Source: a virus (Duplodnaviria; Heunggongvirae; Uroviricota; Caudoviricetes). Taken from it: DNA of 64,000 bases. The stretch's first letter is position 1. Each line of letters starts with the position of its first letter. The position numbers and the translations under genes were made by a program. The DNA is taken from the IMG/VR virus record IMGVR_UViG_3300032272_000001, positions 39,273 to 103,272 of that record; one strand, given 5' to 3'. Positions 4,971 through 50,428 of the stretch are shown here, piece by piece. A model generated the notes under the pieces. It was not told where the DNA came from. It did no database searches and saw only the letters and a program-made list of their open reading frames with translations.

Positions 4971-5783
4971 ATGAAAGAAGAATATAATAAAATTGTCCTA
5001 GATTATCTATCAGAGAAAATTATTTTTAATAATATATATGGGTTCTTGGGCGGAAAAGGTTTTAAAGTAGTTTTCGAATCTATGTCAATAGAAGAAAAAA
5101 TGTTTCTTTTATGTTCTATTAGCTCAGGTGATAATGATAATTTTTGGAAAAAACTTGGATACGATACTTCTAGTAAAGAATATCACGATATTATTCAACA
5201 TGAATGCGATATCATCAATATCTCTGGGCGATCAAATTTATGGGACCATATTAATGCATTGATAGAATATTATGATTCTATGAATTTGATCGGGCGATCC
5301 AATCAGAGCACAATCAAGGAATATCAGTTAAAATATGATCTATTATTTGATAGAAGAGAAATTTTCTTTCTTAATAGACATTTAAGTATTCATAAATCCA
5401 AAACAGAAGAAAATCACAACATACAACCTACACCTATGTGTATTATTGATTTTTATGGGTTTATTTCGGATCATATTCATCATAATATATTGCGCTACAC
5501 TATTAAAAATCACTGTAGTGAAAATGCAATCGCAGCCACCAACCAGGAAATTCCTACTATTATCGATGATATCGAAGAAGGAAATATTGAAGAAGCACTG
5601 AATGGTATTGTTCAAGAATTTGAACTCGCCCTGAAAGAAGTTGAAGATTGGTGTGCAGAAAACGATGGAATGAAATCAGCTCAAGATGAGTTTACTGCTT
5701 ATACTGGACAAGGTTTTTATGATGTTGGTGATTTAGATCAAGACCTTTTTACTGCGATTAATGCTGTTAAAACAATTAACTGA
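4971..5783 (+). CDS. Hypothetical protein, tandem paralog 1
   Basis: Starts MKEEYNKIVLDYL, ends FTAINAVKTIN. Confidence 0.7.
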   Translation: MKEEYNKIVLDYLSEKIIFNNIYGFLGGKGFKVVFESMSIEEKMFLLCSISSGDNDNFWKKLGYDTSSKEYHDIIQHECDIINISGRSNLWDHINALIEYYDSMNLIGRSNQSTIKEYQLKYDLLFDRREIFFLNRHLSIHKSKTEENHNIQPTPMCIIDFYGFISDHIHHNILRYTIKNHCSENAIAATNQEIPTIIDDIEEGNIEEALNGIVQEFELALKEVEDWCAENDGMKSAQDEFTAYTGQGFYDVGDLDQDLFTAINAVKTIN

Positions 5784-5794
5784 TAGGAAATGTT

Positions 5795-6646
5795 ATGAAA
5801 GAAGAATATAAAGAAATTGTATTGAAATATCTAGAACGACAAATGTTGTGGACATCAAGACATGTGTGCGTAAATACGTCTAATTTTGATCAAGTATTTT
5901 CGTTACTTGATCTAGAAGAACAAATGTTTCTTCTATGTTCTATTTCTTGGCAAGAACATGAGAATTTTTGGAAAATTCTTAGTATAGATATTAGACATAA
6001 AAATTTTGATGAAGTAATTAGAAATCATTGTCAAGAAATTAGAAGCAGTATTGACATCTGTGATCATAAAGACTCATTACTAGAATTCTCTTATAATCGG
6101 CATGGAAAATATAGCAATAAAAACGTCATTGAATTTTATGTTTGTGATAATGATATGAATATTGGTAGACAAGAAAAATTTCGTTTAAATGCTATATTGA
6201 GTGATCATAGATACGATGAATCAGCAGTATTCTCTAAACCTACATGTTCTGATATTATAGATTTTTATGGTTTTATTTATGATAAAATTGATTATGATAT
6301 GTTGAATTCCGTAATAGATGAATATTATATGAATCAAAAAAATGATAATTCTGTTGCTACGCAAAATCTTAGTGCTGATCTATTACGAATAGATCAACTC
6401 GAAAAAGAACTGGATAACGTTATTCAAGAAAAAGAATCTATTGAAAAACAATTAGATTCCTTTGCGTTAATGTATAAAGAATTAGTTGCAGGGATGTCGG
6501 TAAATCGCCGACTAGTTGCAGAAAGCAGTAAAGAAACTTTGAATAGCGATGTTGTTTATTATGATGAAGCACCAACTGGTGGTCCATGTGGTGCGGGTTC
6601 TTTAGACGTTTTTACTGCAATTAATGCTATTAAACCAACCAATTGA
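5795..6646 (+). CDS. Hypothetical protein, tandem paralog 2
   Basis: Starts MKEEYKEIVLKYL, shares EEQMFLLCSIS and IIDFYGFI, ends FTAINAIKPTN. Confidence 0.7.
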   Translation: MKEEYKEIVLKYLERQMLWTSRHVCVNTSNFDQVFSLLDLEEQMFLLCSISWQEHENFWKILSIDIRHKNFDEVIRNHCQEIRSSIDICDHKDSLLEFSYNRHGKYSNKNVIEFYVCDNDMNIGRQEKFRLNAILSDHRYDESAVFSKPTCSDIIDFYGFIYDKIDYDMLNSVIDEYYMNQKNDNSVATQNLSADLLRIDQLEKELDNVIQEKESIEKQLDSFALMYKELVAGMSVNRRLVAESSKETLNSDVVYYDEAPTGGPCGAGSLDVFTAINAIKPTN

Positions 6647-6657
6647 TAGGAAATACT

Positions 6658-7386
6658 ATGAAAGAAGAATATAAAGAAATTATTTTGGATTGCCTTAAGA
6701 AAAAACTTAATGATTCTTTTGGTGATTGCGATAAATATGAAACATCGATTTATTATATGCATGATACTCTTTCGATCGGAGAACAAATGTTTCTTATGAC
6801 GGAAGTTGATTATTATGATAATGTAAAATTTTGGTCTGATGTCCGTGGGAATGAGTATTGTGATTATGATGATTATTCAGTTAGATTAGAATTGACTAAA
6901 CATTTAGATAATTATACAGATGCGTGTGATTATGCTAATGATCTTTCATATCATATTAAACATAATGACCTAATAAAATGTTCATCTAATTATATTATTA
7001 GTAGTTTTTTGGCAACAAAAACAGATGAATATATACCATTACATGTGCAATTGCGTCTTCTTCAGTATGTGAATTGTGAATTGGATGGTTATAATGAAAT
7101 GAGATATGAAAATTCTCCATTGTGGTTTATTTTATCTGATATGACAGGAATTTATTTCAACAATGAAATGATTAATTATATAAATGAAAAATATGATGTT
7201 AATTCAAATATTACATCCTCTGAAGAAGACGTTACTGATTTAACTTTTATTAGTGGTATTAGCTTTGATTTTTCCAAATTAAGACCATCTGGTCCTTCGT
7301 TAAGAGATAATTCGAATTCAGATGATCTAGAACTAGTTTCTGATGATCTTGAATCGTCTATGAATTCATTTAAAGGGATTTGTTAG
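6658..7386 (+). CDS. Hypothetical protein, tandem paralog 3
   Basis: Starts MKEEYKEIILDCL after SD; GEQMFLM motif. Confidence 0.65.
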   Translation: MKEEYKEIILDCLKKKLNDSFGDCDKYETSIYYMHDTLSIGEQMFLMTEVDYYDNVKFWSDVRGNEYCDYDDYSVRLELTKHLDNYTDACDYANDLSYHIKHNDLIKCSSNYIISSFLATKTDEYIPLHVQLRLLQYVNCELDGYNEMRYENSPLWFILSDMTGIYFNNEMINYINEKYDVNSNITSSEEDVTDLTFISGISFDFSKLRPSGPSLRDNSNSDDLELVSDDLESSMNSFKGIC

Positions 7387-24053: not shown

Positions 24054-24584
24054 ATGGGTAAGTATAGTAATTTTGAGCGTAAACCAAGAGATTTATATCC
24101 AACACCACTAAAAGCGGTAGAGCCTCTTTTCCCGCATTTACCTGATAAATTTACATTTTCAGAGCCTTGTGCAGGAAATGGTGTGTTAATAGATCATATA
24201 ACATCTATTGGTGGTGAGTGTGTGTATGCAGGTGATATAGTACCACTACGAAATGACATAAGACAATTGTCTTATGAAGACTATATTAAAACACAAATGC
24301 TGCACAAAACACCAGATTTGGTGATAACAAATCCTCCATGGACAAGATCGATTTTACACGACATGATAACCAAGTTACCAGCTATTGCTGATACGTGGCT
24401 ATTGTTTGATTCTGATTGGGTGCATACCAAACAAAGCACTCTATACATGGAAAATTGTGTGAAGATAGTTAGTATTGGTAGAGTTAAATGGTTTGGTGGA
24501 ACAACTGGTAAAGAAAATGCTTCTTGGCATTTGTTTAGAGAAGGTTATTCGGGACCAACAGAATTTTGTGGGAGAGAACAATGA
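24054..24584 (+). CDS. DNA amino-methyltransferase (N6A-type)
   Basis: DLYPTP, EPCAGNG motif I, ITNPPW motif IV. Confidence 0.85.
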   Translation: MGKYSNFERKPRDLYPTPLKAVEPLFPHLPDKFTFSEPCAGNGVLIDHITSIGGECVYAGDIVPLRNDIRQLSYEDYIKTQMLHKTPDLVITNPPWTRSILHDMITKLPAIADTWLLFDSDWVHTKQSTLYMENCVKIVSIGRVKWFGGTTGKENASWHLFREGYSGPTEFCGREQ

Positions 24585-46489: not shown

Positions 46490-46721
46490 TCATTTAGGTG
46501 TTGGTGATATGTTGACGCACGAAACATGTCCATGGTCTAATTTTGTGTGTGTTCATAAAATGTATAATGATGAAGGGTGGTACGTCATCCGTGCGTGCAA
46601 TTCTGGTGTATTGGAAAATTTTACAGTAACATCACCAAAAGGATGGATTTTAACAAGCAAAGTACAGAAAAGGAAATCTATTGGGGATAAAAATAAAAGA
46701 ATACAGGCCCTATCAGAATGA
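46473..46721 (+). CDS. Hypothetical protein
   Basis: ORF track. Confidence 0.45.
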   Translation, partial: KQKQFDHLGVGDMLTHETCPWSNFVCVHKMYNDEGWYVIRACNSGVLENFTVTSPKGWILTSKVQKRKSIGDKNKRIQALSE

Positions 46722-48096
46722 TTGTATATTAAAATATAAAAATTATAAAGACACTTCTGGACGAATAATTGCACCAACAGCATCAGGAAAAACATATTTG
46801 CAGGCAAGAATTTTGTCTCTTAGATTAGATGGATGTTCTGTTCATCTAGTAGTTGCTCCAAGAATTGCTCTATTGAATCAACACATCAAAGAATATAGAT
46901 ATTCTATACCAGAAAAAAAATATATTTCGTATGCGTTTCATTCTGGATCATATGAAGTTGATTATAATCAAGTTCAGTGGTCAGAAAGATCTGGAACAAA
47001 ACCAGAACAAGTGCAAGAAGAAATAGTAAGAGCAAGAAGACTTGGTATGGATCTTGTTATCTTTTCTACGTATGCTTCTTTTGGTAAATTATCATCTGTT
47101 TTTTTCAAAACAGCGATATTTGATGAATCTCAATACTGCATAGCAGAAGATGTTTTTGAAAATTTAAAAAATATAGACAGCGATCAATATCTATATTTTA
47201 CAGCAACAGAAAAACACACAATTTCTGGAAATGGTAGAGGTCTTAATAATAAAGATGTTTTTGGTGGAATTATTTATAAAATTTTGCCTCAAATATTGAT
47301 TGATGAAGGATGGATATTAGCACCAAGATTGCATATAATGAAAGCTGATAAAACCACAGAGGGGAGCACTTTAATTGATGAAGTATCGTCTCTTGCAGAA
47401 GGACAAATTCAGCAAACATTAGGAATGCCTTTTCGTAAAATTTTGTTTGCATGTAAAGGAACTTCATGTATAAAGAAAATAATTAAAAAAATCAAAGTGT
47501 TGAAAAAAAGACATCCTAATTATAGAGTATTCACCATTATGTCTAATGGTGAATTTGGTGCAATGATTGATGGTGTTAAAGTCTCACGTGAAAAATTCTT
47601 TGCTGAATTAGACAAAGATGAAGATTCGTTTGTTTTCCATTATGATATTATTAGTGAAGGTATCGATGTTAGTGGATTTACTGGTGTTTGTATTTTGAGA
47701 TATTTGGATAAAACTAAATTATTACAAACTATCGGTCGCGCTCAAAGAGTATGGGATGGTGATAAAGGAAAGGATATAGATAAAAGAATAAAAAAACACG
47801 CTGTTGTTTCTGTTGCCAGAATAAATGGTAATGCTGAAAGTGAAGATTATGTTAGAAATATTGTGATACAAATGAGGCTTGGTGGCTATGATGTCACAAA
47901 AGAACTTATTGATTGTACAGATGATCCTGGATTTGGTATTGGTGAAGATTTTGCAATAGATCCATTAACACAATTGAATCGAAGGGGCGAAACAAGTGAT
48001 GTGTTAGAACATATTTTCCATGATATAGAAAAGGATGAAGAAATGTATACTATTAGATATTTAACTCCAGTAGAATTGATTGCAGCTTTAATATGA
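46681..48096 (+). CDS. SF2 helicase/ATPase (Res-subunit-like)
   Basis: RPYQ, APTASGKT, FDESQ, FTAT, EGIDV, QTIGRAQR. Confidence 0.88.
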   Translation: MGIKIKEYRPYQNDCILKYKNYKDTSGRIIAPTASGKTYLQARILSLRLDGCSVHLVVAPRIALLNQHIKEYRYSIPEKKYISYAFHSGSYEVDYNQVQWSERSGTKPEQVQEEIVRARRLGMDLVIFSTYASFGKLSSVFFKTAIFDESQYCIAEDVFENLKNIDSDQYLYFTATEKHTISGNGRGLNNKDVFGGIIYKILPQILIDEGWILAPRLHIMKADKTTEGSTLIDEVSSLAEGQIQQTLGMPFRKILFACKGTSCIKKIIKKIKVLKKRHPNYRVFTIMSNGEFGAMIDGVKVSREKFFAELDKDEDSFVFHYDIISEGIDVSGFTGVCILRYLDKTKLLQTIGRAQRVWDGDKGKDIDKRIKKHAVVSVARINGNAESEDYVRNIVIQMRLGGYDVTKELIDCTDDPGFGIGEDFAIDPLTQLNRRGETSDVLEHIFHDIEKDEEMYTIRYLTPVELIAALI

Positions 48097-48662
48097 CGAA
48101 TATACTTCAACACGATTTTTGTAAAATTTGTTATGATATAGATCTTCTTTTTGGTGGTGTGTATTTAATGTCTCAATTCATGAAAAATTTGCATGAACAA
48201 AGTGAAGAATCTCCTGATATGTTCACACCAAATGTTTATCTTGGTATGGGCTTTGAATGTTTTATTGAATCTCTTATTGGTCAGTTTAGAACAGATAAAC
48301 GCATTACGATTGAAAATTATTCGATTGTAAAACATAATGATCAGGGAGTTGATGGTTTTGGATATGGTTTGGGTGGAGAAATACATACTGTACAATGTAA
48401 AGCGCGTATGAACGTGAATGGATGGTTGACAGCAAATGAAGATCATATATCAAATTTTGTTGCTCATTCAAAATGTCATTATAAATCACAACCAAAACAC
48501 ATGACTGTATTTACAACCGCTCAAGGTGTTGTTACTGACACATGTATTAATATGTATGAAGATGAAATTAATGTTATTAACAATGATGGGTTGAGAAGTC
48601 TTGTGGATAATAATCAAGAATTCTGGACAGAATTTAGAAATGAAATGAAAATAAGTAAATAA
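48093..48662 (+). CDS. PD-(D/E)xK restriction-endonuclease-like protein (Mrr-like)
   Basis: GFE...DQGVDGFG...TVQCK. Confidence 0.65.
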   Translation: MTNILQHDFCKICYDIDLLFGGVYLMSQFMKNLHEQSEESPDMFTPNVYLGMGFECFIESLIGQFRTDKRITIENYSIVKHNDQGVDGFGYGLGGEIHTVQCKARMNVNGWLTANEDHISNFVAHSKCHYKSQPKHMTVFTTAQGVVTDTCINMYEDEINVINNDGLRSLVDNNQEFWTEFRNEMKISK

Positions 48663-49756
48663 TGGTTTCTTTTAGTAGAGAAGATTTGATTAAAGAAATG
48701 TATCGTCAGAAGATTTTTAAAAAATCTCTTCCAACACCACCAAAAATAATAGATCAAATAATAACACACATGCAAATAAAACCAAAAGAAAGAATATTGG
48801 TTTTACATAGTCCAGATATTGTTGTTGCTTTATTATCTGCTGATATTCCTTCTCGTTTTATTACATTATATGGTAATAATGATCAATGGATGCCATCAAT
48901 AACCGCAAATCTTGGTGTTCATTATATTCACAATCTAGAAAAAATTGCTTGTCTACAATACGATGTTGTGATAGGAAATACACCATACACTATAGATAAT
49001 TGGAAAGGTAAAATAGATCGAAGTGTTTTGGAATGGGCAGAAGAATTGGTTTCTCTAAAACCATATCTTAAAGAAAATTCTAGATGGGGATTGATTGGAC
49101 CATCAAAAGCTCAATTACCTAATGGAGAAATGTATAAACAAAATATATTTGAGCATTATGGTTGGAATTCTGTATATACAGATATTGCTGATTTTAATCA
49201 TATGATTTGTGACATAGAACCAGCTTTATATTTTGGTGTTTGTGGTCCAGTTGATGATATTGTTGTTTATCATCACGGAGAAAATCATATTTTTAAATAT
49301 GGTTACATCCCAACAAACGGAATGTTAGACAATACAATCATTACAAATAAATTTTTTTCTATGAATAAAACATTAAAATGTGAAAAAACACCTTGTTCTA
49401 ATTGGATCGATCCTATATTCTGTAAAAGACTAGTTTCAAGATATTCTATAAATGATAAAAAACGAAAATGTGTTGATTTTGAATTAGGTAAAGTTTATGA
49501 TAAAAACGGAAAATATAATGATGGTTTATTTTTAGATTCTATGGTATATGATATCGATGAACTGAAAAGGAAGCATAAAATGTGGAGAATATCTAGATTT
49601 TGTTGGGATCATGTGTTGTATTATTCTCAATATATTCCACCACATGTAAAATCAAAAATTCCTGACTTGACATCTTTTGATACTGATGCTAAGTTGATCG
49701 AACATCTAAAATTGTCTGATAATCAAATACAGACAATAAAAGAATGGAATGTGTAG
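48662..49756 (+). CDS. Divergent DNA methyltransferase-like protein
   Basis: YDVVIGNTPY resembles motif IV NPPY; no clear glycine-rich motif I. Confidence 0.5.
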   Translation: MVSFSREDLIKEMYRQKIFKKSLPTPPKIIDQIITHMQIKPKERILVLHSPDIVVALLSADIPSRFITLYGNNDQWMPSITANLGVHYIHNLEKIACLQYDVVIGNTPYTIDNWKGKIDRSVLEWAEELVSLKPYLKENSRWGLIGPSKAQLPNGEMYKQNIFEHYGWNSVYTDIADFNHMICDIEPALYFGVCGPVDDIVVYHHGENHIFKYGYIPTNGMLDNTIITNKFFSMNKTLKCEKTPCSNWIDPIFCKRLVSRYSINDKKRKCVDFELGKVYDKNGKYNDGLFLDSMVYDIDELKRKHKMWRISRFCWDHVLYYSQYIPPHVKSKIPDLTSFDTDAKLIEHLKLSDNQIQTIKEWNV

Positions 49757-49788
49757 AGTTTAAATCATGAAACAATTCGTTTAGGAAC

Positions 49789-50166
49789 GTGAAAATGAAA
49801 AATTTCGGAGATATGAATAAAGTTGAGGTAATTGATTGTGCTATTAAGCATATAACTACTATTTCAACAGATCCAAAATATAGTTTCAATTGGATTAATA
49901 TACACAATAATCATTATATTGAAGATAGAGGAACCGTTAGTATGTGTGGAGCGGGTGCTGTAATGGCATTAGAACTCAATCATCCATATGATAAATTTGG
50001 TTTGTTCAGTGACTATGACGAACAGATCGCTGATCGGCTAAATTTTATCAGTAGTGAAAGCCAAGCACCGTATGGTGTTCCGCCGCAAACTTGGGAAGAA
50101 TCTATCGATAATCTCAATATTGTGCGGAGCGAATTGATAAAAACACATAACTACGATTTTGATTAA
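49789..50166 (+). CDS. Hypothetical protein
   Basis: ORF track. Confidence 0.5.
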   Translation: MKMKNFGDMNKVEVIDCAIKHITTISTDPKYSFNWINIHNNHYIEDRGTVSMCGAGAVMALELNHPYDKFGLFSDYDEQIADRLNFISSESQAPYGVPPQTWEESIDNLNIVRSELIKTHNYDFD

Positions 50167-50173
50167 TATACAT

Positions 50174-50351
50174 GTCCTGATGGTCTCAATGGTAAGACGG
50201 TACGGCCTGGTGTGTTCGTGAGAGCCAGGGCTTGTGGAACTGATATCTGATAGCTAGGGTTATTGGATGGGTGAAGCAAGGTCTAACGTGCAAATGCGAA
50301 AAATGCTCGCTATCCCTATAGAGCAAGGTTCGATTCCCGCGAAGGACTCCA
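50174..50351 (+). ncRNA. tRNA-like RNA with ~120 nt structured insert in place of the anticodon arm
   Basis: GTCCT/AGGAC acceptor, D arm GTCT-CAATGGTA-AGAC, GGTTCGATTCC, 3' TCCA. Confidence 0.5.
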
Positions 50352-50428
50352 AATACGAGTTTATCCGCATAACGCTAGAAATAGCATTATTAAAAATTTA
50401 ATCTAATTTAATATTATGGAGAAATGTG

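Follow-up and report, generated by a model that had tools for sequence, protein, structure and literature searches.

The window analysed here is 64,000 nucleotides long and comes from the complete genome (G000; 176,134 bp, with terminal repeats) of a T4-like phage from a sediment metagenome. A single contig from the run that is its probable source matches it letter for letter, which does not amount to an independent confirmation. The genome encodes a two-piece tmRNA, which, together with the host range of the relatives of its solo methylase, hints at an alphaproteobacterial host. Three ORFs of the window overlap successively, motor and nuclease by ATGA, nuclease and large subunit by TAATG. A first-pass annotation of the sequence had described them as three translationally coupled genes, and the ORFs, the overlaps and all quoted motifs were confirmed. 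The features referred to below are:

46681..48096, + strand: motor, a Type ISP-like SF2 helicase-like ATPase of 471 aa; TTG start, AGGA Shine-Dalgarno element
48093..48662, + strand: stand-alone Mrr-family nuclease of 189 aa; E55, D83, D87, Q101, K103
48662..49756, + strand: large methylase-fold subunit of 364 aa, the putative specificity subunit
48977..48988, + strand: altered motif IV, NTPY, which differs from NPPY in the first Pro only
49757..50400, + strand: slot of the usual small gene in relatives; unrelated sequence in the window phage
24054..24584, + strand: solo adenine methylase of 176 aa, unlinked to the cassette; motif I and NPPW intact, phrog_799 (E 3e-32)

A promoter scan performed no better than chance. 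None of the three proteins matched the PADLOC system models at E 0.1, and a literature search found no published description of such a cassette. Two further elements of the window were recorded. At 50174-50351 (+) lies a tRNA-like element of ~178 nt. Its acceptor stem is 5 bp long with a terminal CCA, and a long insert separates a D-arm-like hairpin from a T-loop-like motif; ARAGORN missed the element, Rfam gave no match, and it folded no better than shuffled sequences (z -0.7). At 4971-7386 there are three tandem orphan paralog-like genes with a common MKEEY start and no family match.

The three proteins and their relation to known systems

The motor carries Walker A (PTASGKT, residues 32-38), motif II (DESQ, 148-151), motif III (TAT) and motif VI (QTIGRAQR, 349-356), followed by a C-terminal helix (437-459), and matches Pfam ResIII (E 5e-10) and phrog_16. 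The DESQ variant, to which attention had been drawn, is present but not unusual, as 116 of 120 motor homologues carry it; reading it as a sign of a broken motor was therefore rejected. LlaBIII and LlaGI are the best PDB matches of the motor family profile, and the motor model aligns with LlaBIII (residues 1-459 to 171-718) at Z 28.0 and rmsd 3.4 over 414 residues, the Z scores for LlaGI and XPB being 27.7 and 25.4. This alignment ends at LlaBIII residue 718 and includes the motor's last long helix and nothing past it; for the larger part of the all-helical ISP coupler domain, no equivalent is visible. Motor homologues are present in 419 cyanophage records, at least some of them without nuclease or methylase neighbours. 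Shorter homologues (~410 aa) occur without such neighbours in the T4-like cyanophages L001, L002 and L005 (1715-2938), and in Bellamy the short partnerless kind and the cassette kind are found side by side.

The nuclease had been described as stand-alone and Mrr-like with a D..VD...QCK signature, and this assignment holds. It matches phrog_7683; Mrr_cat is matched by 17 of 30 homologues and Mrr_cat_2 by 15 of 30, and the Atlas also points to Mrr. It possesses every catalytic residue of LlaGI: D83-x-G-V-D87 and Q101-C-K103 have the spacing (D-4-D-14-Q-x-K) of D74/D78/Q92/K94 in LlaGI, in which D74, D78 and K94 are essential (PMC2790908).

The large subunit begins with a shortened Rossmann front half (residues ~20-100) that lacks the SAM-binding loop, continues with a catalytic half and ends with a target-recognition domain (~205-364). 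Its motif order is that of the gamma class, its Atlas neighbours are Eco57I/N6 MTases, and its family profile matches CamA, M.TaqI and M.BseCI from motif IV on. The model (pLDDT 71.5) has a full class I methylase fold (Z 13-16) with a poorly modelled recognition domain; in the whole-chain alignment with M.TaqI, residues 23-339 correspond to 21-409 at an rmsd of 6.9, model confidence being low at 244-287. Two peculiarities had been noted for this protein, the lack of a clear motif I and NTPY in the place of NPPY. A Gly-rich motif I is indeed absent, but this is the norm for cassettes of a motor and an Mrr nuclease, which have ILVLFNxEF in its place. The motif IV variant was confirmed at nt 48977-48988. 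As NTPY retains the catalytic Asn and the stacking Tyr, the motif alone is no proof of lost catalysis. What is genuinely unusual at this locus is the absence of a fourth gene, described below, together with the altered motif IV.

Compared with the modules of Type ISP enzymes as set out in PMC4872093, the locus offers an Mrr nuclease (D-x3-D, QxK), a motor of the same SF2 subfamily, a gamma-class adenine methylase fold and a putative recognition domain. Type ISP enzymes, whose recognition domain is TaqI-like, unite these in one chain, whereas there are three chains here, without a SAM-binding motif or a small partner gene, with NTPY as motif IV and with most of the coupler apparently missing, and the carrier is a lytic T4-like phage. 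Members of Type ISP methylate a single strand and cut DNA when translocating complexes collide. We therefore regard the cassette as Type ISP-like in its predicted parts but not as a member of Type ISP, since it is not one chain and its methylase does not appear intact. The earlier idea of a split restriction-modification-like complex thus stands as far as a Type ISP-like split set is concerned. The comparison with Type III that went with it does not, because Type III has a beta-class Mod and a Res with fused nuclease, unlike the gamma motif order and separate nuclease of the window, and only generic ResIII profiles match. Type IV systems (Mrr, SauUSI, McrBC), which cleave only modified DNA, have no cognate methylase, as may be the case here, and SauUSI, too, pairs an SF2 motor with a nuclease; the reader here, however, would be a predicted dead methylase with its recognition domain instead of a dedicated methyl-reader domain. 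Our search for a cognate methylase yielded no small, C5, Dam or N6/N4 family gene; the solo methylase listed above is present in the same genome.

A four-gene cassette family and the loss of its small gene

Motor, nuclease and large subunit co-occur widely across phages, and they are separate ORFs at all loci examined. Profile and structure searches recovered the motor, the nuclease and the methylase fold that the first-pass annotation had named; what it had missed is a four-gene ancestry. Four-gene loci were found in many uncultured phages and in the cyanophages Bellamy, ACG-2014f and S-CAM7, whose annotations call the genes no more than helicase, methyltransferase or hypothetical; gene order varies within the family. 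The product of the fourth gene (130-190 aa) contains motifs X, I, II and III and ends before motif IV. On M.BseCI the two proteins split the methylase without overlap, the small protein corresponding to residues 9-104 and the large subunit to 128-280. Among 31 distinct loci in which the large subunit is complete, 28 have the small gene, while the window, L008 and one truncated contig do not; every locus that carries it has NPPY or NPPF as motif IV. When residues 1-215 of the L019 large subunit were co-folded with SAM and the small protein of that cassette, the score was 0.30, the mark being 0.32. In P0097, the small protein is found alongside a methylase whose motif I is nearly intact. A further variant is seen in L055 (1994-3537), where a different, longer helicase stands with a methylase whose motifs I and II are nearly intact and with a small half-methylase gene; the front half of the large subunit may here be at a less advanced point of its decay.

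In four-gene cassettes, motor and large-subunit front are inherited together, while the catalytic half is exchanged in one piece with the recognition domain. Between L038 and L040, for example, identity is 88% in the motor and 79% in the large-subunit front, but 22% in the catalytic half. Such swapping is the pattern that a specificity-switching restriction system would leave. The exchange involving L040/L044 and L038 takes place at a KFD junction, and L040 and L044 share 96% and 91% across the exchanged catalytic half and recognition domain. Tandem pairs of large-subunit-like genes (L030, 600-2019; L040, 2642-4703) perhaps represent two specificities on one motor.

The window locus shares with the four-gene cassettes the adjacent orthologous motor and nuclease and a large subunit without motif I; it differs in lacking the small SAM-binding half and NPP[YF], and in having a recognition domain that has been conserved and not exchanged. 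The small half-methylase gene had no match at 49757..50400, nor anywhere in the complete 176-kb genome; it is also absent locally from the orthologous locus in L008, L052 and L053, which are partial views, and genome-wide absence is established for the window phage only. The window, L008 and L052 share an upstream dNTP pyrophosphatase-like gene, and these three and L053 a downstream lysozyme-like gene on the opposite strand; two further clade members come from short contigs. In the motor tree, the window, L008 and L052 form one clade (100/99) with long branches, nested among four-gene loci, and in the large-subunit tree the five members form one clade (100/98). Because the three-gene motors are nested in this way, the state without the small gene is derived, and one loss is enough to account for it. 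The ancestral cassette comprised four genes, one of which encoded a small protein that bore the SAM-binding motifs, and the window locus is a derived form of it that has lost this gene.

Motif IV changed within this clade: it reads NTPY in the window and L053, HVPY in L008 and L059, and NPPY in L052, the second Pro and the Tyr being invariant. The first Pro is thus lost in four of the five three-gene members compared with none of the 28 four-gene loci, and NPPY or NPPF occupies 62 of 63 readable motifs among the profile matches outside the clade. On a tree built with those positions masked, the loss of this Pro needs at least two changes. That the catalytic motif is no longer conserved where the small gene was lost supports a role of the small protein in methylation. 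The recognition-domain family of the clade also occurs in cassettes with NPPY and the small gene (P0036, P0097), so that it presumably began as a methylating specificity.

The nuclease retains its catalytic residues in all members of the clade and has a dN/dS of 0.11. Although silent sites have reached saturation in the comparison of the window with L008 (pS 0.73-0.87), the two loci retain their frames, overlaps and active sites; the large subunits have open frames and share 41% identity, evenly along their length. Their recognition domains are 42% identical, compared with only ~20-35% for most four-gene pairs at similar motor identity. All three genes are thus under purifying selection, with an unusually frozen recognition domain. 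Decay into pseudogenes after loss of the small gene would fit the missing gene, the altered motif IV and the long branches, but is very improbable, as six phage loci have preserved the open frames, the overlaps and the catalytic residues despite the saturation of silent sites; the comparison of the window with L008 largely refutes it. What seems new here is that an undescribed phage cassette has given rise to a rare form without a methylase, which selection maintains.

Proposed restriction without a cognate methylase

On balance, these comparisons make it somewhat more likely than not that the cassette restricts DNA without cognate methylation, its dead methylase serving as a DNA reader. The three proteins would form an ATP-driven, sequence-specific DNA-cutting complex that derives from a split Type ISP enzyme and no longer methylates. 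In such a complex the large subunit would clamp a fixed target and flip an adenine into the former active site without SAM; the motor, docked on the front half of the large subunit, would translocate along double-stranded DNA, and the nuclease would cut upon collision of two complexes. The substrate may be the host chromosome or the DNA of a rival phage or plasmid. LlaGI cleaves in the absence of AdoMet (PMC2790903), and its target adenine is flipped without AdoMet as well (PMC4872093), so that by analogy a recognition subunit devoid of SAM could still start translocation and cutting. The suggestion of the first-pass annotation that the methylase fold serves only for recognition is most likely right, given the loss of the SAM-binding gene, the altered motif IV and the purifying selection. 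Some points speak against the explanation as a whole. The role of the small protein is itself only putative, as it also accompanies the P0097 methylase; related motors are partnerless in some cyanophages; and most of the ISP coupler is apparently missing.

The partnerless motors, together with the long branches of the clade, its fixed genomic position, the frozen recognition domain and an anti-restriction ardA in the same genome, would also suit a module that is no longer restriction-like. This could be a machine for DNA processing or host takeover, which strips proteins or nicks host or replicating DNA, or a decoy sitting on host restriction sites. We consider this rather unlikely, because the catalytic residues of the nuclease are invariant in the clade, where a decoy would need none, and because the recognition domain is conserved and translational coupling is kept.

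Less likely again is a restriction-modification system that still works. The large subunit would then methylate either with SAM that another partner supplies, such as a host protein or the solo 176-aa methylase, or by way of a non-canonical pocket. Such activity could be accommodated by the retained Asn and Tyr of motif IV, the NPPY of L052, the complete methylase fold in the model, the availability of the solo methylase and the unsettled mode of action of the small protein. It conflicts with the deletion of the SAM loop of the large subunit, the absence of a small gene that is nearly universal elsewhere, the His that replaces the Asn of motif IV in two members, and the invariance of motif IV wherever the small gene occurs.

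Sparing of self DNA

For restriction without a methylase, the weakest step is how self DNA is spared. No target site was pinned down, and none of the asymmetric 4-6-base motifs is absent from both strands of the genome. ACCTG is only partly depleted in G000 (83 vs 219, ~40%) and also in L008, but not in L052, and CACCTG is strand-biased in G000 (2 vs 18). CNCGNG-type avoidance signals were rejected as codon artefacts of solenoid-repeat genes. CTGCAG, GGTACC, GGATCC, GCATGC, CTCGAG and GTCGAC are absent from G000; for the first four of these palindromes, this is indistinguishable from avoidance of host enzymes. Hypermodified DNA was discarded as an explanation, since no modification pathway was recognised in the genome: our search for base-modification genes found no ThyA-type, C5, Dam, N6/N4 family or PurZ gene, and a QueC-like match at genome positions 172650-172835 was sub-threshold. 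Glycosyltransferase genes are present. The ardA gene (genome positions 115814-116185) scored above the cut-off. The family of the solo methylase is common in phages of Alphaproteobacteria, and this protein is a candidate source of outsourced protection. A GANTC specificity was not adopted for it, since in direct comparison it resembles the characterised PhiLM21_p027 too weakly.

Of the ways in which self DNA might be spared, we tentatively favour one in which the complex cuts host-methylated DNA, the dead methylase acting as an m6A reader, although this is itself doubtful. The changed pocket would accept N6-methyladenine, so that the complex would cut DNA bearing the host's methylation and leave alone newly made phage DNA, which has no such mark. 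The idea is suggested by the repeated change of the first Pro of motif IV, the same position as in RNA dimethylases, where its replacement permits re-binding of methylated adenine (PMC3814359). The rRNA dimethylases KsgA and Erm, with the motif (A/S/N)(L/I/V)P(Y/F) (PMC3814359), likewise have a branched residue in place of this Pro; they act on RNA and bind SAM, however, and only the logic of the pocket is borrowed. A reader of a host mark would have no need of a methylase or of avoided sites, and its specificity would stay fixed; all three observations agree with this. Several points weaken the analogy: L052 retains the Pro, the Pro rule comes from RNA methylases, and Thr lies outside their L/I/V set. 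Moreover, short phage methylases of the broad kind of the solo methylase can mimic host CcrM marks (PMC5537653), and the solo methylase could thus endanger the phage if the m6A reader read the same site. Two other solutions seem fainter prospects, equally so. In one, the reader would be blind to methylation and the phage would avoid its site; in the other, the target would be unmethylated and its protection would come from the solo methylase, a host methylase or ArdA.

A restriction enzyme that lacks its protective methylase ought to be lethal to its carrier; if the cassette is such an enzyme, this lineage, which has kept it through deep divergence, must spare itself in another way. The locus would be a natural intermediate between restriction-modification and methyl-dependent restriction, and it offers a natural deletion experiment on the small half-methylase protein. 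If m6A is read, the complex would represent a novel type of sequence-specific methyl reader, and a restriction-modification machine would have been turned modification-dependent, its rule for self and non-self reversed at the cost of one lost gene and one changed active-site proline.
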